From Candidatus Levyibacteriota bacterium (GTDB lineage: Bacteria; Patescibacteriota; Microgenomatia; Levybacterales; UBA12049), in the NCBI GenBank assembly GCA_016182235.1, contig JACOXT010000003.1:130209-194208 (forward strand): a stretch of 64,000 nt of DNA. The letters are read 5' to 3'. The notes below the pieces were generated by a model, which made no database searches, was not told where the DNA came from, and worked only from the letters and a program-made list of their open reading frames with translations. Each line of letters starts with the position of its first letter. Position 1 is the first letter of the stretch. The position numbers were made by a program, and so were the translations under genes. This document shows, one piece after another, positions 3,338-63,583 of the stretch.

Positions 3338-4798
3338 ATGTCCGAAATAACTAATTCACAAATTCTACTATTATTAATTTTAATAGTTATATCTCTTTCT
3401 TTGGGTGGTATATATTACCATAGGAGAAAAGTGGGGGGGATTAGACAGCGATCTGAGAGAGACCTTGAAGAAATAAATAGAGCACTTGTCACAAGCCAGA
3501 GAATAAACAAAATTATTTTGCAAAGTCTCAATTTTGATGATGTTGTCCAGAAAATATCAGATACTATCCCAAATGAACTTTTTTTTGTTACGGGTGTTGT
3601 TGCAGTAATTGAGAAAGTTAAAAGAACAATTAGAAGAGTGGGAGTTTCTTCTACAAAAGAAGCAAGCGAAGCAGTAAGTGCTTTGCGAGTTCCATTTAAT
3701 AAAATTGAGATCTCCTTAGATGATCCAAATAATTTTATGGCTAGAGCTGTCAGAGAAAAAAAAGGTCTTATTACTGAAGATATTTATGACGTACTAGGTC
3801 CTGTTTTGACGCATGATGAAGCAAATAAAATCCAAAATCTTATGGGTACAAAAACAACTGTAGTTTATCCAATTTATGGAGGAAGAGAAGGGGCAATTGG
3901 AGTGTTCGTTGCTAGCACAAAAAAGAAAAAAGAGGATCTTTCAGAATACGATTATGCTATGATTCAAAGTTTTGTTGACGGAGTTGGTATCGCAATGGAA
4001 CATGCAATGTTATATTCAAATCTTGAAAAAACTTCAGAGCAATTACAAGAAGCAAATATAAAATTAAAAGAGGTGGATAAATTGAAAGATGAGTTTGTGT
4101 CTTTGGCGTCTCATGAATTGAGAACTCCTATGACTATAATTAGTTCTTATTTGTGGTTAATGCTAAATAAGGATAATGCTTCCTCGCTTTCCGAAAAACA
4201 AAAAATGTATCTTGACCGTGCGTACATATCGACCCAAAGACTTATAAATTTAGTTAATGACATGCTGAATGTTTCTAGAATTGAATCCGGAAGACTTACT
4301 CTTGCGATAAAACCAACAGATATTGCTGAGCTAGTTAATTCTGTCTATGTAGAGATACTGCCTAAAGCGCAAGTGCAAAAAATAAATTTGATTTTTGAAA
4401 AACCTCAAGAAGTTTTACCCAAAGTTCAAGCTGATCCAGAAAAAATAGAGCAAGTGCTAATAAACTTAATTGGCAATTCACTCAAATTTACGAAAGAGCA
4501 AGGTTTGATAAAGATATCAATAGCTAACAATCCTTTACAAAAAACAGTAACAGTTACAGTTTTGGACGACGGAAAAGGGATAAACAAAGAAGACATACCC
4601 AAGCTTTTTCAAAAGTTTGGTATGGTAGGAAATAATTATCTTGTAAAGCAGAATACCCAAGGAACAGGACTAGGATTGTATTTATCCAAATCGATAATTG
4701 AACTCCATGGAGGAAAAATCTGGGTAGAGTCAGAAGGTGAAGGAAAAGGTTCTAAGTTTAGTTTTACTTTAAAAACAGTGGATAGTAAAGTTAGCTAA
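3338..4798 (+). CDS. Membrane sensor histidine kinase (TM, GAF-like domain, HisKA, HATPase_c)
   Basis: H-box FVSLASHELRTPMT; G-boxes DDGKGI and GTGLGLYLSKSIIELHGGKIWVESEGEGKGSKFSFTL; N-terminal TM helix. Confidence 0.9.
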   Translation: MSEITNSQILLLLILIVISLSLGGIYYHRRKVGGIRQRSERDLEEINRALVTSQRINKIILQSLNFDDVVQKISDTIPNELFFVTGVVAVIEKVKRTIRRVGVSSTKEASEAVSALRVPFNKIEISLDDPNNFMARAVREKKGLITEDIYDVLGPVLTHDEANKIQNLMGTKTTVVYPIYGGREGAIGVFVASTKKKKEDLSEYDYAMIQSFVDGVGIAMEHAMLYSNLEKTSEQLQEANIKLKEVDKLKDEFVSLASHELRTPMTIISSYLWLMLNKDNASSLSEKQKMYLDRAYISTQRLINLVNDMLNVSRIESGRLTLAIKPTDIAELVNSVYVEILPKAQVQKINLIFEKPQEVLPKVQADPEKIEQVLINLIGNSLKFTKEQGLIKISIANNPLQKTVTVTVLDDGKGINKEDIPKLFQKFGMVGNNYLVKQNTQGTGLGLYLSKSIIELHGGKIWVESEGEGKGSKFSFTLKTVDSKVS

Positions 4799-9342: not shown

Positions 9343-9500
9343 GAAGGAAGAAATTGCTGAAGCAATTTTGAAAGGGACAGGATTATATGGGAGGGAAAAT
9401 TTGGGCAGAGTCTGAGGGGATTGGTAAAGGTTCGAAGTTTAGTTTTACTTTAAAGACAGCTGAGGACGCACAAGAAATACAACATATAAAGACTCTATAA
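9343..9500 (+). pseudogene. Remnant of a histidine kinase C-terminus (HATPase_c fragment)
   Basis: 9387..9500 translates to MGGKIWAESEGIGKGSKFSFTLKTAEDAQEIQHIKTL, paralogous to the end of the kinase at 3338..4798. A shifted upstream frame reads KEEIAEAILKGTGLY, which indicates an internal deletion. There is no HisKA part. Confidence 0.7.
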
Positions 9501-52397: not shown

Positions 52398-53056
52398 TTG
52401 ATTCGGGACTATTAATACTTGCTTCTACCTCCGGCATTTTTGCTTTTTTTACACCATGCAGCGTGGCCTTGATTCCCGGCTTTGTAGGTTTTCTCGTGAA
52501 GACTGACGACGAAGGCAAGATATTAAGAGGGGTGAAAGTCGGGTTAGTTTCTGCTTTGGGGCTTTTGACTGTTTTTATGGGGCTGGGACTCCTGATAAGT
52601 TTGTTTGGCAATTTTATAGCGCCTTTTACATTCTTTATTGGCGTTACTGCCGGAGTGATACTGATTATTTTGGGTCTGTATCTTCTGGCAGGGAAAACGA
52701 TAGGTGTGGCTATTCCTAATTCGATAGGGGAAAATCGCGGAGTTAAAGGATATTTTTTATTTGGAGCGACTTATGGACTTGCCTCTTTGAGCTGCACTTT
52801 GCCTATTTTTCTTCTGGTAATGTTTCAGGCTTTGTCTGTAGGCGGAGCAAAAGCGGGAATACTGATCTTTTTAATTTACAGCGCAACAGCAGCCTCTTTT
52901 ATGGCGCTGACTGCTTTTGCAGCTATTCTATCCAAGGATTTAGTGAGAAATTACCTTGGAAAAGCATTGCCTGTTGTAACAAGACTTAGCCCAATTCTAA
53001 TAATATTGGCAGGAATGTATCTGATATATTTTCAGTTAAGAGCTTTTTATTTATGA
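52394..53056 (+). CDS. ccdA: CcdA/DsbD-type transmembrane thiol-disulfide electron transporter
   Basis: FFTPCSVALIPGFVG and ASLSCTLPIFL, one conserved Cys in each half. Confidence 0.75.
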   Translation: MIDSGLLILASTSGIFAFFTPCSVALIPGFVGFLVKTDDEGKILRGVKVGLVSALGLLTVFMGLGLLISLFGNFIAPFTFFIGVTAGVILIILGLYLLAGKTIGVAIPNSIGENRGVKGYFLFGATYGLASLSCTLPIFLLVMFQALSVGGAKAGILIFLIYSATAASFMALTAFAAILSKDLVRNYLGKALPVVTRLSPILIILAGMYLIYFQLRAFYL

Positions 53057-53574
53057 GAGAGGTTTACTTGGCAATAATAAACGTTTTTAAGGAAAGAAAT
53101 TATTTTTTGGCTTTTGTACTTATAGCAATGGTCTTTTTTGCGCTGTTTATTTTTATTCCTGTTTTCACTATTCCAGGAAATGATCTTGGGTTTCAACTGT
53201 CCATTTACTCGCAAAAGGACTATGTTCTGATGTTTTTATTAGCCGCTCTGGTAGGACTTAATTTGGCCTTGCAAGTTTATATTTTTAGAAAACAAAGAGA
53301 GGAACGCAGGTTAACTCAGTCAACAGGTCAATTAGCAGTGTCGGGAATTTCTGGAGTATTTGGAGCAGTTGTTGGGACAGCGGCCTGTGCATCATGTCTT
53401 GCATTCTTTTTCGGACTTATTGGGTTGGGAGCAGGAAGCGTCATTTTTGTTTTGAATAATCAAATATATTTTTTTGTTGGCGCAATAATTTTGCTCTTAA
53501 TTTCTCTATATTTTACAGCTCGAAAAGTTAATGGTGTCTGTGAATCTTGCCATATTGACAAAGCGAAAACATAG
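53053..53574 (+). CDS. Integral membrane protein with an intramembrane CASC and a C-terminal CESC motif (unknown; candidate metal or thiol handling)
   Basis: VGTAACASCLAFFFGLIGLG; NGVCESCHIDKAKT. Confidence 0.5.
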   Translation: MREVYLAIINVFKERNYFLAFVLIAMVFFALFIFIPVFTIPGNDLGFQLSIYSQKDYVLMFLLAALVGLNLALQVYIFRKQREERRLTQSTGQLAVSGISGVFGAVVGTAACASCLAFFFGLIGLGAGSVIFVLNNQIYFFVGAIILLLISLYFTARKVNGVCESCHIDKAKT

Positions 53575-53608: not shown

Positions 53609-55009
53609 ATGGATACTTATGATTTAATTATCATCGGCGGCGGAGCAGGAGCTTTTGCTGCGGCTATCAAAGCCAATGAACTTGGCGCAAAAACTTTGAT
53701 GGTTAATAAAGGATTACCTCTCGGTGGAACTTGCGTCAATGTGGGTTGTGTTCCTTCCAAGACTTTACTTTGGGCAGGGGAAGTAATGCACCTTGCCAAA
53801 AACCATAAAATTCCGGGAATTGATATGGAAGTAAAAAACTTCGATTTTGCAACTGTTCTTCAGCATGAACTCGATCTTGTTGCAAAATTAAGAGAAGAAA
53901 AATATGAGAAGGTGCTAAGGAATTTAGAAAACGTCACTCATTTAGAAGGACGCGCATCTTTTGTGTCTGCAAATGAAATTGAGGTTAATGGTCAGAAATA
54001 TCAAGGAAAGAAATTTATTATTGCCGCCGGATCAACAACTACAGTACCGCCGATTGAAGGTATTAAGGAGGTAGGCTTTATAACCCATATTGAAGCCTTA
54101 AAACTTAAAGAACAGCCAAAAGAACTGATTGTTATTGGTGCGGGTCCTGTAGGGCTTGAGTTTGCCCAAATGTATGCCCGGTTCGGCACGAAGGTAACAA
54201 TTCTTCATAGAGGCTCAACTATTTTTAGAGGTGAAGAAGAATTGACCACAAGATTGGCAGAGATACTGACTGATGAAGATATTACTATTAAAACAAATGT
54301 CCAAGTGAAAAGTGCGAGAAAAGAAGGCGACAAAAAGATTGTTTCCTATCTTGTTGAGGGCAAGCAGGAAGAAGTAGTGGCAGATGAAGTTTTACTCGCC
54401 GTTGGCAAAACACCAAATACGAAAGATCTAGGACTTGATAAAGCCGGCATTGAAATTGATGAAAAACAAGCAATCAAAGTAAGTCCCAATTTTCAAACTT
54501 CTCAACAGTATGTTTATGCGGTAGGCGATGTAATAAACTTACCCATAAGACAAGAACCGACAGCAGGTAGAGAAGGAACATTAGCTGCTGAAAATGCTCT
54601 GAAAAATACGCAAAATAGTATTGACTACAATACTGTTCCCTGGACTATTTTTACAGACCCGCAACTTGCAGGAGTTGGATTTACCGAGGAGGAACAGATG
54701 AAACGGTTTGGAACGTGTATGTGTAAGGCTGTCTCTTTCAAAGATATACCTAAAGCTATTATTTTAAATAGAACCGAAGGACTTATTAAGATGGCAATTC
54801 ACCCAGAAACAAAACAAATTATGGGGGTTCATATTCTGGCGCCTAATGCGGGAGAGTTAATCGCGCAAGCTATGATTCTTATTAAAAATAAAAATACTAT
54901 TGACGATGTTGTTAATTCCCTGCCGATGTTTCCGACACTTTCCGAGGCTATTAAAATTGCCGCCCTATCCTTTACCCAAGACATTACCAAACTTAGTTGT
55001 TGTGTTTAG
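53609..55009 (+). CDS. merA: Mercuric reductase-like FAD-dependent disulfide oxidoreductase (core MerA without the NmerA domain)
   Basis: Redox-active GGTCVNVGCVPSK and a C-terminal vicinal cysteine pair ...ITKLSCCV, as in MerA. Confidence 0.7.
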   Translation: MDTYDLIIIGGGAGAFAAAIKANELGAKTLMVNKGLPLGGTCVNVGCVPSKTLLWAGEVMHLAKNHKIPGIDMEVKNFDFATVLQHELDLVAKLREEKYEKVLRNLENVTHLEGRASFVSANEIEVNGQKYQGKKFIIAAGSTTTVPPIEGIKEVGFITHIEALKLKEQPKELIVIGAGPVGLEFAQMYARFGTKVTILHRGSTIFRGEEELTTRLAEILTDEDITIKTNVQVKSARKEGDKKIVSYLVEGKQEEVVADEVLLAVGKTPNTKDLGLDKAGIEIDEKQAIKVSPNFQTSQQYVYAVGDVINLPIRQEPTAGREGTLAAENALKNTQNSIDYNTVPWTIFTDPQLAGVGFTEEEQMKRFGTCMCKAVSFKDIPKAIILNRTEGLIKMAIHPETKQIMGVHILAPNAGELIAQAMILIKNKNTIDDVVNSLPMFPTLSEAIKIAALSFTQDITKLSCCV

Positions 55010-55011
55010 CT

Positions 55012-55677
55012 ATGAATAGTAAACTTTGGTATTTAAAACAATTAAATCTTTTTAAATCATTACCTCAAAAAGAGGTCGAGATGCTTTCGCACAATCTGGT
55101 GATGAAGGAATACGGCAAGAGGAAAGTTATTTTAGAGCCCGAAGATAGCGATAAAGTTTTTATATTAAAGATGGGGAGGGTAGAAATATATGAACTGACC
55201 CCTGATGGCAAAAAGATCATTGTGGATATCCTTACCCCAGGGAATGTTTTTGGGGACTTAGGTGTTGAAGAAACAAATGAGAATTTTGTAGAAGCCACAA
55301 CAAATTCACTTGTTTGTGTTATGAAAAAACAGGAATTCTTCGAGATGGTATCTAAAAACCTGGCTGTTTCTTATCAGCTGATTCGGGAGCTGTTCCAAAA
55401 AACTGTTGAAGATAAAAAAACTGTTGCAGCATTAGCTTCTGATAGTTTACTCACTAAGGTCAAAAACTTACTATTAAGATTGGCTAAAAGATATGGAGAG
55501 AAAAAAGAAAATACAGTAACCATAGCTGCTAAGTTTACTCATGAGGAGTTGGCAGACATGGTGGGAATTTCCCGTCCAACGATGACTGAACTGCTTAATA
55601 AACTAGATCGCATAGGGGTTATTAAAAGAGTAGGAAAAATTATTACATTTGATCCCCGGAAACTTGCTGAGATATAG
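55012..55677 (+). CDS. Crp/Fnr-family transcriptional regulator (no FNR Cys cluster)
   Basis: cNMP-binding-like beta-roll followed by a C-terminal HTH HEELADMVGISRPTMTELLNKL. ATG at 55012 preferred over the TTG at 54997. Confidence 0.85.
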   Translation: MNSKLWYLKQLNLFKSLPQKEVEMLSHNLVMKEYGKRKVILEPEDSDKVFILKMGRVEIYELTPDGKKIIVDILTPGNVFGDLGVEETNENFVEATTNSLVCVMKKQEFFEMVSKNLAVSYQLIRELFQKTVEDKKTVAALASDSLLTKVKNLLLRLAKRYGEKKENTVTIAAKFTHEELADMVGISRPTMTELLNKLDRIGVIKRVGKIITFDPRKLAEI

Positions 55678-55681
55678 CATT

Positions 55682-55702
55682 TTGTCGCCCGAATGACAGA
55701 AT
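55682..55702 (+). promoter_or_regulatory. CRP-geometry site 1: TTGTCGCCCGAATGACAGAAT
   Basis: Core TGTCG-N6-TGACA. TATAGT begins 30.5 bp from the site centre, the class II activator geometry. Confidence 0.65.
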
Positions 55703-56181: not shown

Positions 56182-56910
56182 TCAAAGCTTAATCGTCCCC
56201 TCTTTTGTGAAAAGATGCGTTATGTTAATCCCTAATTTTTCATATACTTGTTTTGGAATAGACAAATCAGCAACATATAACTCTCCAACATAATCTTTTG
56301 CTTTGTCCACCAAAAGACCAACCTTAGGTAAAGCAAGAGTGATTGTTGTTGAGGCCCTTACGGTAGGATTATTAGCATCTCCTGAATTTCCGTTAAGACC
56401 TGAAGGAATATCAACAGCAAGAATTAGCTTACCTGAATTATTCGAAATATCAATTAGGTTAGAGTAGGGCACCCTAGGATTGCCTTTCAAATTATATCCA
56501 AGGAGGGCATCGATTATCAGATCCGAATCTTTTATTTTTTCCTGGATCAAGTTTATTTGTTCATTTGAGAATTCTATAATGTCTGCTCCTGTATTTATTA
56601 AGATATTAAACTGTACTTGAGCATTTTCAGCAAGATTTTCCTTCTTTTCTGCAAGTATACAAGTAATCTTCCCGCCAAAGTTAATCAAATGGCGTGCAGC
56701 GCCAAGCCCATCCCCGCCGTTATTTCCTCTGCCGCAAAGAATAACGATTTTTTTATTCTTTACACTTCCCGAAAGTATTTTCCGGGTAAGCCCTGCAATA
56801 TTTATTGATGCGTTTTCCATCATCATAAGGATTGAAGTACCAATCTCCTCAACCATAAGTCTATCTACCTCTGCCATCTGATCAACGGTTAGGGCCGGAA
56901 TTCTTCTCAC
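56182..56910 (-). CDS. nnrE: NAD(P)H-hydrate epimerase (YjeF N-terminal domain)
   Basis: ILCGRGNNGGDGLGAARHL. Confidence 0.85.
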   Translation of the reverse strand: MRRIPALTVDQMAEVDRLMVEEIGTSILMMMENASINIAGLTRKILSGSVKNKKIVILCGRGNNGGDGLGAARHLINFGGKITCILAEKKENLAENAQVQFNILINTGADIIEFSNEQINLIQEKIKDSDLIIDALLGYNLKGNPRVPYSNLIDISNNSGKLILAVDIPSGLNGNSGDANNPTVRASTTITLALPKVGLLVDKAKDYVGELYVADLSIPKQVYEKLGINITHLFTKEGTIKL

Positions 56911-56940: not shown

Positions 56941-56961
56941 TTGTCGCCTGGATGACAGAAT
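56941..56961 (+). promoter_or_regulatory. CRP-geometry site 2: TTGTCGCCTGGATGACAGAAT
   Basis: 18 of 21 nt identical to site 1. TAGAAT at 56979-84 begins 29.5 bp from the centre. The predicted TSS is at or next to the ATG at 56992 (leaderless). Confidence 0.65.
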
Positions 56962-56991: not shown

Positions 56992-57324
56992 ATGAAAGGA
57001 ATAGCTACGTGTCAAAATTGCATTATTGAGCTGTGGAAAAATGATTGCGAACATTGTGAGGCTGTTAAGCCCATTGTCGCGGAGCTTGAAAAAGAAGGAT
57101 ATGTTTTTGAAAAACACAATATTGAAGAAAAAGATGGAGAAACTCTGTGGCATGAGTATGCCGAGGAAATTGAGAAAAATAATAAAAGCATGGGATATGA
57201 TGAAGGGTATATTTATACACCAACATTTATTAATCCAGACAACAGAAACATTATTGCGTTTACCGATCGTGAGCCGACTAAAACTGAGTTAATCCGGTTT
57301 GCGGAAGGAGGCGAACCAAAATGA
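56992..57324 (+). CDS. Thioredoxin/glutaredoxin-fold protein with a CEHC motif
   Basis: IIELWKNDCEHCEAVKPIVAELEKEG. Confidence 0.65.
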   Translation: MKGIATCQNCIIELWKNDCEHCEAVKPIVAELEKEGYVFEKHNIEEKDGETLWHEYAEEIEKNNKSMGYDEGYIYTPTFINPDNRNIIAFTDREPTKTELIRFAEGGEPK

Positions 57325-57461
57325 TGGGGCATGGAAAACACGATAACTGCGCGATGTGCAGAATGGGAAAAGCTGTTGGGATGATAGAAAAGCATCCTGA
57401 GGGCTGTGAGTGCGAAACTCATCCAAAGAAGAAAGATGAAAGAGAAAACTATGGTAAATAA
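57321..57461 (+). CDS. Cys/His-rich micro-protein A (46 aa; absent from the ORF track)
   Basis: Hand translation MMGHGKHDNCAMCRMGKAVGMIEKHPEGCECETHPKKKDERENYGK. SD GGAGG lies 9 nt upstream. ATGA overlap with the upstream stop and 11-nt overlap with the gdh start. A paralog lies at 59433. Confidence 0.7.
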   Translation: MMGHGKHDNCAMCRMGKAVGMIEKHPEGCECETHPKKKDERENYGK

Positions 57462-58743
57462 TAATCCCTGGAAAAGAGCACAAAAACAATTACGGAAAGC
57501 GGCAAGGTATATCAAGCTTGATCCTCTAACGCTCGCAAAACTATCAAATCCTGATAGGGTGGTTGAGGTTTCTCTGCCTATAAAACTTGGCAGTGGCGAA
57601 ATAAAGGTTTTTCAAGGTTATAGAGTTCAACATAATAATATCAGAGGTCCCTATAAAGGTGGGCTAAGATATCATCAAAAGGTGGACATGGATGAAGTAA
57701 AAGCTTTGGCTTTTTGGATGACTATAAAAAATGCAGTGGTAAACGTGCCGTTTGGTGGTGGTAAAGGCGGTATTGCAGTTGATCCCAAGACTCTTGAGGA
57801 ATTGGAGCTTGAAAAACTCACCCGCCAGTTTACCAGAAAAATTGCAGACTTTATTGGCCCTCAAAAAGATGTCCCAGCGCCTGATGTAAATACTAATCCT
57901 AAAATCATGTCTTGGATTAAGAATGAATATAGCAATCTAACGGGTCAAGATTCGCCTGCGGTGGTAACTGGTAAGCCTATTGAGGATGGGGGTTCGCAAG
58001 GCAGAACTGAAGCTACAGGATTGGGTGGCGTTTACGCTTTGTTGACTGTTTTAAGCAAATTAGGTAAAGATCCCAAAGGGATGAGTGTGGCTATCCAGGG
58101 TTTTGGTAATGTGGGGAGTTTTTTGGCTAAATTTTTACAAAAAGAGGGATTTAAAGTTGTAGCGCTATCAGATTCTAAGGGTGGAATTTATATTCCGGAT
58201 GGCATAAGGGATATTGATGAAGTTAAGCGTTGTAAAGAAGAAAAAGGACTACTGGCTGGATGCTATTGCGTTGGTTCTGTCTGTGATCTAAAAAATATGA
58301 AAAACTTAGGAGGAAAAAATATTGAAGCCGATAAAGTTTTAACTCTTCCTGTTGATATCATTGTACCTGCTGCTTTAGAAAACTCAATTACCAAAGAGAA
58401 TGCTGAAAAGATAACAGCAAAGATAATACTAGAAATGGCTAATGGTCCGACAACATTAGAAGCGGATGAAATATTGCAAAAAAAGGACGTTGTGGTAATA
58501 CCGGATATTTTAGCAAACTCTGGAGGCGTGGCTGTTAGTTACTTTGAGTGGTATCAAAATTTAAACAGTAAGCACTGGGGTAAGGAAGAAGTGTTTAAGA
58601 AGCTAAGGGAAAAAATGGAAAAAGCTACAGGTAAAGTACTTGATACTTCTAATAAATATGGCGTTAGTTTAAGAGAAGCCGCATACATAGTCGCTTTAAA
58701 TAGGATTCAAGAAAAGAGCCAAAATATTTTGTCGTTGAAATAA
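57451..58743 (+). CDS. gdhA: Glutamate dehydrogenase (Glu/Leu/Phe/Val dehydrogenase family)
   Basis: VNVPFGGGKGGIAVDPK. Start moved to the ATG at 57451 (MVNNNPWKRAQKQL). Confidence 0.9.
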   Translation: MVNNNPWKRAQKQLRKAARYIKLDPLTLAKLSNPDRVVEVSLPIKLGSGEIKVFQGYRVQHNNIRGPYKGGLRYHQKVDMDEVKALAFWMTIKNAVVNVPFGGGKGGIAVDPKTLEELELEKLTRQFTRKIADFIGPQKDVPAPDVNTNPKIMSWIKNEYSNLTGQDSPAVVTGKPIEDGGSQGRTEATGLGGVYALLTVLSKLGKDPKGMSVAIQGFGNVGSFLAKFLQKEGFKVVALSDSKGGIYIPDGIRDIDEVKRCKEEKGLLAGCYCVGSVCDLKNMKNLGGKNIEADKVLTLPVDIIVPAALENSITKENAEKITAKIILEMANGPTTLEADEILQKKDVVVIPDILANSGGVAVSYFEWYQNLNSKHWGKEEVFKKLREKMEKATGKVLDTSNKYGVSLREAAYIVALNRIQEKSQNILSLK

Positions 58744-58749
58744 CAGAAT
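58729..58749 (+). promoter_or_regulatory. CRP-geometry site 3: TTGTCGTTGAAATAACAGAAT (overlaps the gdh stop codon)
   Basis: 16 of 21 nt identical to site 1. TATACT at 58767-72 begins 29.5 bp from the centre. Confidence 0.55.
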
Positions 58750-58796
58750 TAAATTAAAAGCTCGAATATACTGTGTTTATACAAAAATAAGATTTT

Positions 58797-59417
58797 ATGA
58801 AAGCAAATCAAAAATTTAGCAAATTAGCAAGCAATCAAATAATTGAAAAAACAGTTAATGCGCTTGAGAGAAACGGAATTAAAACGTTTGTTGCAGAAAA
58901 TGGCAGCGAGGCAAAAAGGAAAGTTGTAGAAATGTTGCCGGATGGGGCAGAGGTTTTAACCATGACGTCTCAGACCGCAGAAATAGTGAGTTTGGCAAAA
59001 GAAATAAACGAATCTGGAAAATATAATTCCGTGAGGCAAAAACTCATAGCAATGGATAAAAGTACGCAGGGTCGTGAGATGGCAAAAATGGGGGCGGCAC
59101 CCGAATTTGTAGTAGGGTCTTTGCATGCGGTCACAGAGGATGGGCAGCTTTTGATAGCTTCTGCAACAGGCAGTCAACTTCCGGCAGAGTCCTATGCCGC
59201 AGGAAAGGTTATTTTCGTGGTTGGAGCACAAAAGATAGTTAAGGATACTCAAGAGGGATTAAGAAGAATTTATGAGTACTCCTATCCTTTGGAAGACGAA
59301 AGAGCGCAAAAAGCATATGGCATGAGAAGCGGAGTTAATAAAATCCTTATAATCAACAAAGAAATGATGCCGGGCAGAATAACGATTGTTTTTATTAAAG
59401 AAAACTTAGGATTTTAA
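58797..59417 (+). CDS. LUD-domain (LutC/YkgG-like, DUF162) protein
   Basis: Size and the pattern ...LIASATGSQL...VIFVVGAQKIVKD. Confidence 0.6.
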   Translation: MKANQKFSKLASNQIIEKTVNALERNGIKTFVAENGSEAKRKVVEMLPDGAEVLTMTSQTAEIVSLAKEINESGKYNSVRQKLIAMDKSTQGREMAKMGAAPEFVVGSLHAVTEDGQLLIASATGSQLPAESYAAGKVIFVVGAQKIVKDTQEGLRRIYEYSYPLEDERAQKAYGMRSGVNKILIINKEMMPGRITIVFIKENLGF

Positions 59418-59432
59418 GGGAGGTGACATTAT

Positions 59433-59576
59433 ATGATGGGGCATGGAAAACACGATAACTGCGCGATTTGTCAAATGGGAAAAGCTGTTGGTATGATAGA
59501 AAAATGTACAGATAAAAATTGTACTAATCCAGTTCATAAAAAAGAGAAAGAGGAGGAAATTAAAAAAAGTGAGTAG
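59433..59576 (+). CDS. Cys/His-rich micro-protein B (47 aa; absent from the ORF track)
   Basis: Hand translation MMGHGKHDNCAICQMGKAVGMIEKCTDKNCTNPVHKKEKEEEIKKSE. SD GGGAGGTGA. 8-nt overlap with the GTG start of the downstream glutaredoxin-like gene. Confidence 0.7.
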   Translation: MMGHGKHDNCAICQMGKAVGMIEKCTDKNCTNPVHKKEKEEEIKKSE

Positions 59577-60110: not shown

Positions 60111-61442
60111 ATGAAAAAATTTGATGTTTTGGTTGTCGGCAGTGGAGCTGGTCTTGAGGTGGCTTCATTTGCTGCAGAACGCGGTATGTCTGTTGCAGTA
60201 GTTGAGGAAGGTCCGCTGGGCGGAACATGTCTTAATCGCGGCTGTATTCCCTCTAAAATATTGATTCATTCGGCAGATGTTGCTGAGACTATTAAAAAAT
60301 TCGGGATTAAAAGCAAGATTGAAAATATTGATTTTGCAGCGATTGTAAAAAGAGTTTCTCAAGTTGTGGATGGTGACTCAAGTGGTATTGAAAAGGCAAT
60401 AAGACAAGGCAATAATCCAAACCTTTATAAAATGCGTGGTAAGTTTATCGGTCCAAAACTTATGCAAGTTGGCTCCGAACAAATAGAGGCAGACAAAGTG
60501 TTTATTGTGGGTGGAACAAGACCCTCTATTCCGCCAATTCCAGGCTTGAAAGATACACCATTTCTAGATAGTACAAAAGCATTAAGACTTGAAAAACAAC
60601 CGGAACATCTGGTAATTATAGGCGGTGGTTATATTGCGGCAGAGCTTGCTCATTTTTATGGATCACTCGGAACAAAGGTTACTATTCTAGTTCGGGGCAA
60701 TATCATGTTAAGTAACGAGGATGAAGAAATAGCACAATGGTTTACAAAAGAATTTATTAAGAAACATGAAATCCTCTTCAGCACGAAGGTAAGTAGTGTT
60801 TCTTATCATGATGAAATTTTTAATATTGGATTAAATGATGGGAAGAAATTGGAAGCGGACCAATTGCTGATTGTCACAGGAAGGATTCCTAATACCGATA
60901 TTTTGAATGTTAAAGCAACAGGGGTTGAAACGGACGAAAAAGGATATATAAAAGTAAACGAGTATTTGGAAACTAATGTAAACGGTGTCTTTGCATTCGG
61001 AGATATTATTGGGATTTTACCCTTTAGGCATACTGCCAATGATCAAGTTAGCTTTGCAATCAGAAACGCATTTACAGAAAAGAAGATTCCTGTCAACTAT
61101 TTTGCCATTGGTCATGCAGTATTTTCCTCTCCCCAAGTCGGTGGAGTTGGTAAAACCGAGGAGGAGTTAAAAAAGGAAGGAGTTTCATATAAAGTTGGCA
61201 GAGCAGAGTTAAAAGATACAGGTATGGGAGGAGCATTGCAAGAAAATGGTCTTGCTAAAGTTCTGGCAGATCAGGAGGGAAATATTTTAGGAGTTCATAT
61301 AGTTGGCCCACAAGCTTCAGTTTTAATTCATGAAGCAATAGTCGCCATGAAGGCAAATGGAACAGTCAGTGCTATTACCGATTCCGTTTATATTCACCCG
61401 GCTTTGCCTGAATGGCTGCAAAGAGCATTTTTTGCAATATGA
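60111..61442 (+). CDS. Class I FAD-dependent pyridine nucleotide-disulfide oxidoreductase (lipoamide/mycothione-reductase-like; not MerA)
   Basis: GGTCLNRGCIPSK; C-terminal HIHPALPE His-Glu dyad; no C-terminal Cys pair. Confidence 0.8.
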   Translation: MKKFDVLVVGSGAGLEVASFAAERGMSVAVVEEGPLGGTCLNRGCIPSKILIHSADVAETIKKFGIKSKIENIDFAAIVKRVSQVVDGDSSGIEKAIRQGNNPNLYKMRGKFIGPKLMQVGSEQIEADKVFIVGGTRPSIPPIPGLKDTPFLDSTKALRLEKQPEHLVIIGGGYIAAELAHFYGSLGTKVTILVRGNIMLSNEDEEIAQWFTKEFIKKHEILFSTKVSSVSYHDEIFNIGLNDGKKLEADQLLIVTGRIPNTDILNVKATGVETDEKGYIKVNEYLETNVNGVFAFGDIIGILPFRHTANDQVSFAIRNAFTEKKIPVNYFAIGHAVFSSPQVGGVGKTEEELKKEGVSYKVGRAELKDTGMGGALQENGLAKVLADQEGNILGVHIVGPQASVLIHEAIVAMKANGTVSAITDSVYIHPALPEWLQRAFFAI

Positions 61443-63049
61443 GTAGTAAAACCCAGCTTAATTGGTCAAGAAAAGTTGTTGTTTATCAAATTTATCCGCG
61501 AAGTTTTAAGGACAGCAATAATGATGGTATTGGTGATTTGCAAGGGATAATCGACAAGCTCGATTATCTGAATGACGGAACAGAAAAATCTCTTGGCATT
61601 GATGCAATTTGGCTTTCTCCCATCTATAAATCTCCTATGATTGATTTCGGTTACGACATTTCAGATTATCTGGATATAGATCCTGTTTTTGGCGATCTTG
61701 AAATATTCGATCGTTTCATAAAAGAGGCCCATAAACGCAATATAAAAGTTATTATGGATTTTGTTGCAAATCATACTTCAGATAAGCACATTTGGTTTAA
61801 AGAGTCTAGGTCTTCAAGGCATAATTCAAAAAGAGATTGGTATATTTGGAAAGACCCAAAACCTGATGGATCACCACCCAATAATTGGCTTAGTGTGTTT
61901 GGCGGTTCTTCTTGGGCTTTGGATAAAAGAACAAATCAGTATTATCTCCATAGTTTTTTACCTGAGCAGCCTGATTTAAATTGGCGAAATATTGAGGTAA
62001 AAACAGCAATGGAAAAGGTATTGGAATTTTGGATTCACAAAGGCGTTGACGGTTTTCGATCCGATGCTTCTTACCATTTGATAAAAGATGATCAATTTCG
62101 AGACGATCCTGGAAATCCAAACTACAAAGGCCCTAAAAATTCTTACAAAAGATTTCTCCATATCTATAGTCAGGGTCGGCCTGAAGCTTTAGATACTATA
62201 AACACTTTTTGTTCGATTCTGGGACTTCATAAAGATAAATATATTGTCAGTGAGGCCTATCTTGATATCCCCGAAATGACCAAACTTTACAAAGCTTGTT
62301 CCAATGGCCTCCATGCTCCGTTTAACTTTAATCTTATATCGCTTCCATGGGACGCACAAATAGTAAAAAGCCACATAGATAATTTTGAGGCATCCCTTAA
62401 TAAAAATGATTGGCCAAATTATGTATTAGGCAATCACGACAGACAGCGCGTGGTTTCACGTGTTGGCAAGAAAAGAGCAAAATTGTTAGCTATGCTACTT
62501 TTCACCTTGCGGGGCATGCCTTTTGTGTATTATGGCGAAGAGATTGGCATGGAGAATGTCGGCCTATCTTCCGATAAGCAAAAAGATTTAGTTGGGAATC
62601 GTCTAACAGCAAATCGAGATGGTGAAAGAACACCCATGCAATGGGACGAATCGGCGCATGCCGGTTTTTCTATTGTTAAACCATGGTTGCCAGTGGGAGA
62701 AAAATACAAAGATGTAAATGTCAAGAAAGAATTAAACGATCCCATATCTATGCTTCGTTTGTACCGTCATCTTATTCATTATCGTACTCATAATCATGTT
62801 CTTCTTCACGGATCCTATCGTTCATTAGGCTTTGGCAATAGAAATGTCTTTGCTTTTCTTCGCGAACTTGGTGATGAAAAAATTCTTGTTATATTAAATT
62901 TTTCAAAAGACGAAGAATCTGTTTCCCTTCCCTATCAAAAAGCAAAAGTTGTATGTACTACAAATAGAGAAAAAGAGGGAGAAACTATTAATATCAAAAA
63001 GATAATTTTGTTCGCATATCAAGGGTATGTGATGGAGGTGATTGAGTAA
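61439..63049 (+). CDS. GH13 alpha-glucosidase / oligo-1,6-glucosidase family enzyme
   Basis: YQIYPRSFKDSNNDGIGDLQGI, DFVANHTS, GVDGFRSDA, VSEAY, GNHD. ATGA overlap, so start moved to 61439. Confidence 0.88.
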   Translation: MSSKTQLNWSRKVVVYQIYPRSFKDSNNDGIGDLQGIIDKLDYLNDGTEKSLGIDAIWLSPIYKSPMIDFGYDISDYLDIDPVFGDLEIFDRFIKEAHKRNIKVIMDFVANHTSDKHIWFKESRSSRHNSKRDWYIWKDPKPDGSPPNNWLSVFGGSSWALDKRTNQYYLHSFLPEQPDLNWRNIEVKTAMEKVLEFWIHKGVDGFRSDASYHLIKDDQFRDDPGNPNYKGPKNSYKRFLHIYSQGRPEALDTINTFCSILGLHKDKYIVSEAYLDIPEMTKLYKACSNGLHAPFNFNLISLPWDAQIVKSHIDNFEASLNKNDWPNYVLGNHDRQRVVSRVGKKRAKLLAMLLFTLRGMPFVYYGEEIGMENVGLSSDKQKDLVGNRLTANRDGERTPMQWDESAHAGFSIVKPWLPVGEKYKDVNVKKELNDPISMLRLYRHLIHYRTHNHVLLHGSYRSLGFGNRNVFAFLRELGDEKILVILNFSKDEESVSLPYQKAKVVCTTNREKEGETINIKKIILFAYQGYVMEVIE

Positions 63050-63052
63050 ATT

Positions 63053-63583
63053 ATGAACAACGAAAAAAAACTTTTAAAATTTAGAAAAGAAAAAGACATC
63101 GCTTGGAAAAATGATAAAGAATCGCCTTTAACTGAGGAACAGAGAAGAATTTTTGAAGGATTAAATTATTTTCCATCTAATCGTAATTTGAGTTTTGAGC
63201 TGTTGCTTAATAAAAACGTTCCCGATGCAGGCAAAGAGGTAACTATTAAAACTACAGGCGGAGAGGAACAGGTTTATTTAAGAGCTGGGAAAGTTAGATT
63301 CAGAGTTGAGGGTATTGATGTTGAAGCAATTGTTTTTGAAGATCCTGAGCAGGAACAGTTTCAGTATTGTCTACTTTTTAGAGACCTAACAACTGGGAAA
63401 GAGACCTATAAAAATGGCAGGATGTTACAAATTCCAAAAAAAGGAGACAAGTTAGTTGTTGACTTTAATTATGCCTATAATCCCTATAGTTCCTACAATG
63501 ATAATTGGGATTGTCCAATTACACCAGAAAAAAATGTGTTGCCTGTTGCAATTAAAGCCGGAGAAAAGAAGTTTAATTCATGA
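63053..63583 (+). CDS. DUF1684 domain protein
   Basis: YAYNPYSSYNDNWDCPITPEKNVLPVAIKAGEKKF. Confidence 0.75.
   Translation: MNNEKKLLKFRKEKDIAWKNDKESPLTEEQRRIFEGLNYFPSNRNLSFELLLNKNVPDAGKEVTIKTTGGEEQVYLRAGKVRFRVEGIDVEAIVFEDPEQEQFQYCLLFRDLTTGKETYKNGRMLQIPKKGDKLVVDFNYAYNPYSSYNDNWDCPITPEKNVLPVAIKAGEKKFNS

Follow-up and report, generated by a model that had tools for sequence, protein, structure and literature searches.

A clade-restricted family of Cys/His-rich micro-proteins encoded beside redoxin genes in Patescibacteria

Stand-alone proteins of less than 70 amino acids (aa) that carry Cys-based zinc knuckles are known from archaea, for example the C(P)XCG proteins of Haloferax volcanii. In bacteria, the N-terminal zinc finger of thioredoxin-2 (Trx2) is thought to mediate target interaction (PMC8615215), and Zn-CxxC centres are established redox sensors (reviewed in PMC3184428). 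The genomes of Patescibacteria (candidate phyla radiation, CPR) are small and poorly understood, and little is known about how these bacteria cope with oxidants and thiophilic metals. Here we describe two very short open reading frames (micro-ORFs), copy A and copy B, in a 64-kb window (the whole stretch of DNA that was analysed) of contig JACOXT010000003.1 from a Candidatus Levyibacteriota bacterium. Both are almost certainly real protein-coding genes of one family. The family is undescribed; its members have 45-56 residues and occur only in Patescibacteria of the Microgenomates type (Levy-, Davies- and Roizmanbacteria). A zinc-thiolate redox switch, or an adaptor for the flanking redoxins, would be the most likely role of the micro-protein, although we propose it only tentatively.

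The first-pass annotation of the window had placed the two ORFs at the positions given in Table 1, where both are present on direct reading and in the ORF listing. Their translations contain the N-terminal 24 residues that it had reported as common to both, MMGHGKHDNCA[M/I]C[R/Q]MGKAVGMIEK, and DNA alignment agrees with its count of 35 identical leading nucleotides (nt) and 6 differences in 5 codons over 72 nt, 3 of these codons differing by a synonymous change only. This similarity belongs to a direct repeat of 85 nt (57307-57391 and 59419-59503, 87% identity), which spans the Shine-Dalgarno site and is the longest direct repeat of the window. Another direct repeat, of 70 nt at 83% identity (4709-4778 and 9390-9459), probably represents two paralogous genes. 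The strong Shine-Dalgarno sequences that had been noted, GGAGG and GGGAGGTGA, are located upstream of the two copies, and the overlaps described with neighbouring genes are all visible in the sequence. The ATG of copy A overlaps the TGA of a gene for a CEHC thioredoxin-fold (Trx-fold) protein (ATGA, 57321-57324), the glutamate dehydrogenase gene gdh starts within the 3' end of copy A (at ATG 57451, or in the same frame at 57436), and the GTG at 59569 of a CPDC glutaredoxin-like (Grx-like) gene, with GAGGAGG upstream, overlaps the final 8 nt of copy B. However, the two ORFs, which had been described as unannotated, are both carried by GenBank as "hypothetical protein", in a metagenome-assembled genome (MAG) of Candidatus Levybacteria and on a contig of 600,876 bp.

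A profile built on both copies brought up 30 proteins, 45-68 aa long, in a word-indexed protein search, and an exhaustive hidden Markov model scan of 1.84 billion cluster representatives (E <= 1e-3) returned only 13 small clusters of 41-87 aa, indicating that the family is narrow though real. The scan of 185,579 species genomes yielded 16 loci and that of metagenomes from the Joint Genome Institute 28, giving 44 loci, to which look-ups of exact proteins added 3. From about 48 contigs, 50 micro-ORFs of 41-68 aa were extracted. Most of these homologues are of the B-type, the common form of the family; the A-type sequences are diverse, and orthologues of copy A were found at loci L001, L002, L024, L043 and L045. 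Some GenBank MAG records (L002, L005, L006, L008 and L010) are titled 'uncultured Gammaproteobacteria' and one (L015) 'Micrarchaeota archaeon'; they carry a Levybacteria-like gene order with neighbour proteins 60-95% identical to those of the window, and their taxonomic labels are probably wrong. Pfam and NCBIfam gave no family over threshold for either copy, and a PDB sequence search with the family profile (E <= 10) gave only a chance RING-finger fragment (E = 6.6), in keeping with the earlier failure to recognise the family. Literature searches on Levybacteria with glutaredoxin, on Patescibacteria with mercuric reductase and on small zinc fingers with thioredoxin operons brought up nothing directly relevant.

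Several lines of evidence show that the family is protein-coding and maintained as such. GGAGG(T)GA stands 5-12 nt upstream in 50/50 of the extracted micro-ORFs. In an all-pairs comparison of the first 24 codons, the proportion of synonymous differences (pS) is 0.60 and that of non-synonymous differences (pN) 0.07, a ratio of 0.12 that signifies purifying selection, and copy A differs from its L001 orthologue by 9 synonymous and 0 non-synonymous changes. Amino-acid conservation spans about 35 residues, and summed column entropy at codon positions 1, 2 and 3 amounts to 5.9, 4.5 and 18.3 bits. A non-coding repeat, an RNA element or an opposite-strand gene might be suspected from the 85-nt repeat and from the fact that one antisense frame is open across the ORF in 30 of 39 distinct sequences. 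However, the frequent openness of antisense frames reflects the bias towards Lys and Glu codons, and an opposite-strand gene was rejected, since variation falls on sense third positions and the conserved Shine-Dalgarno site lies on the sense strand, which place the gene on the + strand. An Rfam search of 56.8-60.2 kb found no RNA family, and, together with the concentration of entropy at third codon positions, this upholds the original view that the copies are not an RNA element. Moreover, the nucleotide similarity of A and B stops after codon 24 (the 3' halves are 35% identical), yet the Cys/His ligand pattern persists. The non-coding alternatives are thus already contradicted, and we give them next to no credence.

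Another way to deny the peptide a function would be to regard the micro-ORF as a regulatory leader or upstream ORF, whose translation, perhaps in a Cys- or Met-sensitive manner, controls the downstream gene. The very short reading frame, its overlap with a downstream start (gdh, or the GTG of the Grx-like gene) and its high content of Met and Cys codons would suit such a device. However, a functionless peptide would hardly be expected to show a pN/pS of 0.12, about 35 conserved residues and ligand-preserving substitutions. The downstream gene also varies (Grx, LUD, C2H2, MerA, DUF427 or none), the micro-ORF has its own strong Shine-Dalgarno site everywhere, and no terminator or antiterminator structure or Rfam element was found; a consensus scan for promoters and terminators gave counts not above those of shuffled sequence. 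A leader peptide is therefore very unlikely.

The 5' 72 nt of copy B (window 59433-59504) are 92% identical to copy A (57321-57392) vs 79-86% to B-type orthologues, whereas the 3' half of copy B shows 97% identity to L010-L012 and 35% to copy A. In addition, GGG at codon 3 (Gly) and GCG at codon 11 (Ala) are derived codons common to copies A and B alone. The simplest reading of the 5' similarity is probably a short gene-conversion tract from A into B. Because such conversion would have homogenised the 5' halves, the comparison of A with B by itself says little about selection, and the decisive evidence comes from between-genome comparisons. The earlier argument that the synonymous pattern between the copies reveals protein-level selection was thus right about selection, as the ratio between genomes confirms, but not about the within-window pattern as its proof. 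The duplication itself is older than the window genome, since the two-copy layout of Trx-fold gene, copy A, [gdh], LUD gene, copy B and Grx-like gene recurs without gdh in L024. Presumably, after an old duplication one copy was kept with the Trx-fold gene and the other with the Grx-like gene, and recent gene conversion then made their 5' halves alike.

Conservation of the Cys and His positions, which had been singled out as a check on the family, held across the homologues. H4, C10, C13 and G20 are invariant, and M2, G5, H7, M15, K17, M21 and C30 are conserved to at least 90%; five of these 11 most conserved columns are Cys or His (H4, H7, C10, C13 and C30). The N-terminal module, H-G-x-[HN]-[DCH]-x-C-x-x-C-x-[MT]-[GA]-[KR]-x-x-G-[MLIV], is present in both copies and in 50/50 homologues. 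A second ligand module follows 11-12 residues past the CxxC in the form Cx4Cx4H, Hx3CxC or SEC-C, with P0043 as an outlier that is without it. It reads C25-x4-C30-x4-H35 in copy B and H25-x3-C29-x-C31-x2-H34 in copy A, position 25 being Cys in the B-type and His in the A-type. The first-pass description of a second Cys pair followed by a His is accurate for both copies but not as a general rule, given that the His is not universal in A-type relatives. Further exchanges are seen at positions 7 and 8: position 8 is Asp rather than Cys in most members, distant members replace H7 by Asn exactly where D8 is replaced by Cys, and many members have H7 and C8 together. In L015, L016, L046 and L047 the N-terminal module is kept, but a genuine metal-binding SEC-C motif, CxCx8CH, takes the place of the C-terminal half (PF02810, E = 7e-7; 29.4 bits in L015 and 24.4 bits in L016; gathering score 20.4), while neither window copy matches PF02810. 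DUF2116 (PF09889, 'probable treble clef') gives weak sub-threshold matches in 19 of 42 members (best E = 0.0058); copy B scores 11.5 bits (E = 0.3) vs a cut-off of 26.8, and copy A has no match. Roughly one tail in four is rich in His (HDHAHE, DHNHN, HEHDEHTH) or has CC, CSCC, CDSC or CPACSC at its end, but most tails are plain Lys/Glu and presumably helical. AlphaFold2 (AF2) predicts two helices and no strands for the micro-protein, the CxxC opening one of the helices.

Because Cys and His ligands are swapped for each other and a whole half can be replaced by SEC-C, metal ligation is favoured over a pure dithiol role. Judged from these patterns, it is quite likely that the micro-protein binds a metal, most simply Zn(II), via Cys and His ligands. 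Two other metal-related motifs were considered and dropped: an ATCUN-type N-terminal Cu/Ni site, where the His is at position 4 behind a retained Met-Met and its position varies among homologues, and a c-type haem motif (CxxCH), where C13 is not followed by His.

The company kept by the micro-ORF was assessed by tblastn of the window proteins against all loci, 41 distinct loci being counted. The canonical order is CRP/FNR regulator, gap, CxHC Trx-fold, micro-ORF, CPxC Grx-like, double C2H2, disulfide reductase, DUF1684 and a 120-aa CxxC protein. In 18 of 34 evaluable loci the Trx-fold gene directly precedes the micro-ORF, in most cases with its stop codon overlapping the next start codon, and in 18 of 40 the Grx-like gene directly follows. 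Within 5 kb, the reductase was found in 21 of the 41 loci, Trx-fold and Grx-like genes in 21-22, the CRP regulator in 19, the C2H2 protein in 17 and MerA in 5; LUD is present in 12/41. At least one thiol-redox homologue stands within 5 kb of the micro-ORF in 33/41 loci. The placement of the micro-ORFs in thiol-redox operons thus extends well beyond the window, with conserved synteny to Trx-fold, Grx-like, C2H2 and reductase genes. The order nevertheless has variants. MerA comes directly behind the micro-ORF, or behind micro-ORF and Grx, in L010-L012. Loci not captured by the above counts have redox genes as well. The order is CRP, TlpA-like, CcdA, micro-ORF, Grx-like in L042 and ArsR, micro-ORF, Grx-like, TlpA-like in L015 and L016 (SEC-C-type), and the centre of the large L018 island is occupied by the Trx-fold gene and then the micro-ORF. 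In L017 the order is ArsR, Trx, DsbD_TM, micro::C2H2 fusion, reductase, DUF1684.

Three of the small proteins are tied to one another by natural fusions: P0006/L017 (1813-2019) joins the micro-protein to the second C2H2 finger, and P0086 joins the Trx-fold protein to two C2H2 fingers. A further peptide, MKGI..C..C, starts longer Trx-fold variants, is fused directly to the micro-protein in P0033 (76 aa) and starts a separate 52-aa ORF just past the operator in L018 (3089-3247); it could represent gene decay or an extra CxxC module.

Alignment of the DNA upstream of the Trx-fold/micro-ORF operons revealed a 16-bp palindrome-like motif, TGTCR-N6-YRACA. Its exact form TGTC-N8-GACA occurs twice in the window vs 0.42 expected, and a third site has 1 mismatch (Table 1). 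The TGTCGCCTGGATGACA site is kept at the same position in L001, L002, L006, L007, L009, L024, L033 and L037, and the AACA right-half variant of TGTCGTTGAAATAACA is also seen in L006, L024 and L030-L032. In related loci the motif is intergenic and precedes a Trx-fold, micro-ORF, LUD or reductase gene by 30-60 nt, and in at least 12 loci it follows the stop codon of the CRP gene by 10-20 nt. Since the motif precedes both operons and recurs at equivalent positions, both micro-ORFs appear to belong to one conserved regulon. The CRP/FNR-family protein is the presumed regulator at this predicted operator, an assignment based on co-localisation and on the 5-N6-5 architecture typical of that family.

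Taken together, these features suggest a scheme for how the micro-protein may work. It would be made in stoichiometric amounts with the CxHC Trx-fold protein, through the overlapping stop and start, and with the CPxC Grx-like protein. It would consist of a constant N-terminal module, H4-G-x-(H7 or C8)-x-x-C10-x-x-C13-x-M-G-K-x-x-G-M, and an exchangeable C-terminal ligand module, and would be a functional, free-standing counterpart of the Trx2 N-terminal zinc finger, with a likeness to the Zn-CxxC sensors (PMC3184428). Under disulfide, oxidant or soft-metal stress its thiolates would be oxidised or metallated, and the flanking redoxins would reset them with electrons that come from NAD(P)H and the adjacent flavoprotein disulfide reductase. 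All of these genes would be switched on via the TGTCR-N6-YRACA operator by the adjacent CRP/FNR-family regulator. Several observations weigh against this proposal. In the PDB search, neither Trx2 zinc fingers nor any other solved chain proved similar in sequence. The ligands could form either one site (C10/C13/C25/C30) or two (H4/H7/C10/C13 and C25/C30/H35), and the His-rich and Cys-pair tails suit metal trafficking at least as well as a redox switch. In addition, 8 of the 41 loci are without any detected window-type redox gene nearby, and a fixed protein partner is not proven because the immediate neighbours differ at several loci (LUD, C2H2, MerA, CcdA, DUF427).

The main rival is a soft-metal chaperone or buffer, which would bind Hg(II), Cu(I), Zn(II) or As(III) and either pass the metal to core MerA or an exporter or buffer it in the manner of a metallothionein, the redoxins keeping its thiols reduced. 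We regard this as a possible but rather unlikely role. Cys, His and Met are abundant in the protein, which has a flexible N-terminal G-H-G-x-H; its Cys-ending tails resemble the C-terminal tail of MerA, and its His-rich tails resemble those of Ni/Zn chaperones. Many members have C8-x-C10-x-x-C13, and the C-x-C-x-x-C spacing is that of the As(III) site of ArsR. A core MerA without an HMA domain and a MerT/MerF-like membrane protein are encoded 2-4 kb upstream in the window, and MerA directly follows in L010-L012 as described above. L015, L016 and L017 each have an ArsR/SmtB-family regulator directly upstream, and the window island has two more (49197 and 51291), which recalls smtB-smtA. However, position 8 is mostly Asp and most tails are plain Lys/Glu. 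MerA is near the micro-ORF in only 5 loci, far fewer than the reductase, Trx-fold and Grx-like genes, and no metal-transporting ATPase or HMA protein was seen among annotated neighbours.

Pfam and NCBIfam confirmed the Trx-fold, Grx-like, C2H2, flavin-dependent disulfide reductase and MerA-like neighbours that had been recognised from the letters, and their coordinates are collected in Table 1.

Table 1. Micro-ORFs, ribosome-binding sites, operator-like sites and neighbouring genes in the window
Feature	Position	Strand	Description
MerT/MerF-like membrane protein	53053-53574		CASC in transmembrane helix, C-terminal CESCH
Core mercuric reductase MerA	53609..55009	+	TIGR02053 514 bits > cut-off 454; no N-terminal HMA domain; C-terminus ...LSCCV
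CRP/FNR-family transcription regulator	54997..55677	+	NCBIfam CRP and FNR models 1e-16
Operator-like palindrome TGTCGCCCGAATGACA	55683..55698	+	6 nt past CRP-family gene
YjeF_N/NnrE	56182-56910	-	NAD(P)H-related, in island
Operator-like palindrome TGTCGCCTGGATGACA	56942..56957	+	34 nt before Trx-copy A operon
CxHC thioredoxin-fold protein, 110 aa	56992..57324	+	WKxxC-E-H-C-E active site; weak Pfam Glrx-like and Thioredoxin
Shine-Dalgarno of copy A	57307..57311	+	GGAGG, 9 nt ahead of ATG
Micro-ORF copy A, 46 aa	57321..57461	+	A-type, ...MIEK-H-PEG-C-E-C-ET-H...; identical to GenBank HYT07_01310
Glutamate dehydrogenase (gdh)	57451..58743	+	Pfam ELFV_dehydrog 1e-76
Operator-like site TGTCGTTGAAATAACA	58730..58745	+	1 mismatch; 51 nt before LUD-copy B-Grx operon
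LUD-domain protein	58797..59417	+	Pfam LUD_dom 8e-17; 15 nt upstream of copy B
Shine-Dalgarno of copy B	59418..59426	+	GGGAGGTGA, ends 6 nt before ATG (its GGAGG core, 9 nt)
Micro-ORF copy B, 47 aa	59433..59576	+	B-type, ...MIEK-C-TDKN-C-TNPV-H-KKEKE...; identical to HYT07_01325 / MBI2028227.1
Glutaredoxin/mycoredoxin-like protein (CPDC), 99 aa	59569..59868	+	Pfam Glutaredoxin 4e-13; NCBIfam mycoredoxin 80.6 bits < cut-off 89.5
Double classical C2H2 zinc-finger protein, 65 aa	59868..60065	+	Pfam zf-C2H2_4 29.3 bits > cut-off 27
Class-I flavoprotein disulfide reductase	60111..61442	+	Pyr_redox_2 and Pyr_redox_dim; GGTCLNRGC, HPxxPE near C-terminus
DUF1684 protein	63053..63583	+	Pfam 7e-37; conserved distal cluster member
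CxxC protein, 120 aa	63580..63942	+	no family match; last gene of canonical cluster

The AF2 model of the CEHC Trx-fold protein has a predicted local distance difference test score (pLDDT) of 91.5, and Foldseek matched it to generic thioredoxins only, at a template modelling (TM) score of about 0.55. This partner family is restricted to the same clade and has an invariant ELWK..C-x-[HDN]-C-E. The fingers of the 65-aa C2H2 protein are eukaryote-style. The gdh gene is, by comparison of gene order, a lineage-specific insertion into the cluster, its position being empty of gdh in most related loci, and an alpha-amylase gene (61412-63049) is inserted between the reductase and DUF1684 genes of the window. 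A DUF1684 protein has been proposed as a thiol-relay component in the OxsR regulon of H. volcanii (PMC9426492). Upstream, the island begins at about 49.2 kb with ArsR (49197), thioredoxin (49568), DUF3179 (50030) and ArsR (51291), and continues with a TlpA-like redoxin (51828), CcdA/DsbD_TM (52394), the MerT-like protein, MerA and the CRP regulator. Genes that supply or repair NAD(P)H are found in or beside the cluster, namely gdh and NnrE in the window, a transaldolase in L018 (8465-9349) and a glucose-6-phosphate dehydrogenase (G6PD) fragment in P0042, and their recurrence fits an NAD(P)H-driven reducing system.

The neighbourhood also bears on a third role, in which the micro-protein is a ribosomally made dithiol carrier. 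Its CxxC or second Cys pair would be the disulfide substrate of an orphan, lipoamide-dehydrogenase-like reductase, and electrons would be relayed to the Grx-like protein, the Trx-fold protein and CcdA/TlpA, the peptide replacing a low-molecular-weight thiol or a lipoyl domain. The best NCBIfam models for the class-I reductase (dihydrolipoyl dehydrogenase and mycothione reductase) all fall under their cut-offs, as does every other equivalog model, and the reductase accompanies the micro-ORF in about half of the loci (21/41). It is 77-82% identical across Levy- and Daviesbacteria. Furthermore, the micro-ORF adjoins CcdA/DsbD_TM and TlpA-like genes in L017, L036, L038 and L042, and NAD(P)H-supplying genes (gdh, transaldolase, the G6PD fragment) accompany the cluster. 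However, the invariant His, the swap of Cys25 to His and the SEC-C replacement are expected of metal ligands and not of a redox-active disulfide. The sole CxxC is predicted at a helix N-terminus in a very small domain without a thioredoxin fold, and the micro-ORF is also present in loci showing no reductase. We therefore consider a dithiol carrier improbable. In its broader form, the micro-protein would be a gene-encoded thiol or metallo-thiol cofactor that replaces glutathione, mycothiol or a lipoyl domain as substrate of the orphan reductase and would hand electrons or metal to the CxHC Trx-fold protein, the mycoredoxin-like protein, core MerA and the CcdA/TlpA route; we rate this proposal as equally improbable.

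Thiol-disulfide oxidoreductases beside a small peptide gene could also mature it. In the sublancin operon, such oxidoreductase genes adjoin the peptide gene, and the conserved N-terminal and more variable C-terminal halves of the micro-protein would suit the precursor of a ribosomally synthesised and post-translationally modified peptide (RiPP) or of a disulfide-bonded secreted peptide. However, no maturase, protease or exporter was found among the window neighbours (43-64 kb) or the annotated loci L017 and L018, whose genes belong only to redox, regulatory and metabolic families. Leader cleavage motifs are absent, the variable part is a Lys/Glu low-complexity tail, and the Cys/His positions of the would-be core are conserved. 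A peptide precursor is thus exceedingly improbable, even more so than a leader peptide.

What emerges is a mini-protein that is specific to one clade and under strong selection. Its gene occupies the centre of a conserved island, about 15 kb long, which also encodes CRP- and ArsR-family regulators, redoxins, CcdA/TlpA, enzymes that supply NAD(P)H and two flavoprotein disulfide reductases, one of them MerA. The catalogue of functional small proteins that ORF-length cut-offs conceal in bacteria thereby gains a family, and a 47-residue peptide with two small redoxins is a tractable target for studying redox and metal physiology in CPR bacteria. By itself the family holds no conceptual surprise unless the thiol-carrier proposal is true; if the orphan reductase did act on the peptide, the latter would represent a thiol-redox currency of a new type.

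Among described systems, Trx2 (TrxC) couples a small Cys-based zinc module to a redoxin and has a link to the oxidative-stress response, as is proposed for the micro-protein. The order of zinc module and then redoxin also matches that of copy B and the Grx-like gene. However, Trx2 has two CxxC motifs fused to its Trx domain, whereas the micro-protein has one CxxC together with Cx4C or HxxxCxC and a conserved His, and is a separate polypeptide. SEC-C (PF02810), the metal-binding domain of SecA, YecA and YchJ, forms the C-terminal half of the distant members L015, L016, L046 and L047, and in A-type copies that half likewise opens with CxC, but the window copies do not match it and the N-terminal module is unrelated to it. 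DUF2116, a family of small zinc-binding proteins, is similar in size and in the spacing of CxxC...C...C, but all matches of the family to it are under the gathering score. The Hsp33 C-terminal domain and the zinc-containing anti-sigma (ZAS) factor RsrA place a Cys/His zinc centre, as is proposed here, in a thiol-stress regulon with thioredoxin- or mycoredoxin-type reductants nearby that can reset it (PMC3184428). In contrast to the H-x3-C-x2-C of ZAS (zf-HC2), the spacing here is H7-x2-C10-x2-C13, and there is no sigma-factor or chaperone domain; no sigma-factor gene, such as the extracytoplasmic function (ECF) gene that adjoins ZAS genes, was found among neighbours in the window or in annotated loci.

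Metal-handling proteins offer a second set of comparisons. MerP, NmerA, CopZ and SmtA with SmtB are small proteins with CxxC near Met or His, and MerA or ArsR-family neighbours occur at some micro-ORF loci. However, the micro-protein has neither the HMA fold of MerP, NmerA and CopZ (beta-alpha-beta-beta-alpha-beta, about 70 aa) nor their GMTCxxC, and it gives no HMA match. Unlike SmtA, it has no metallothionein match in Pfam and only 4 Cys, and its link to redoxins is much stronger than that to MerA. Rubredoxin and desulforedoxin, in which two CxxC(G) knuckles, or CxxC plus CC, form an Fe(Cys)4 site, differ as well: the micro-protein has a single CxxC with Cx4C or CxC as its second pair, position 25 may be His and neither Pfam nor NCBIfam gives a match. 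The motifs of the archaeal C(P)XCG micro-proteins are unrelated to the single CxxC and conserved His of the present family, which has a fixed redoxin neighbourhood in CPR bacteria. On sequence grounds, the micro-protein thus resembles the known families with which it was compared only in kind, and the features that set its family apart are the exchangeable second ligand half and the fixed position between two redoxins in CPR bacteria.

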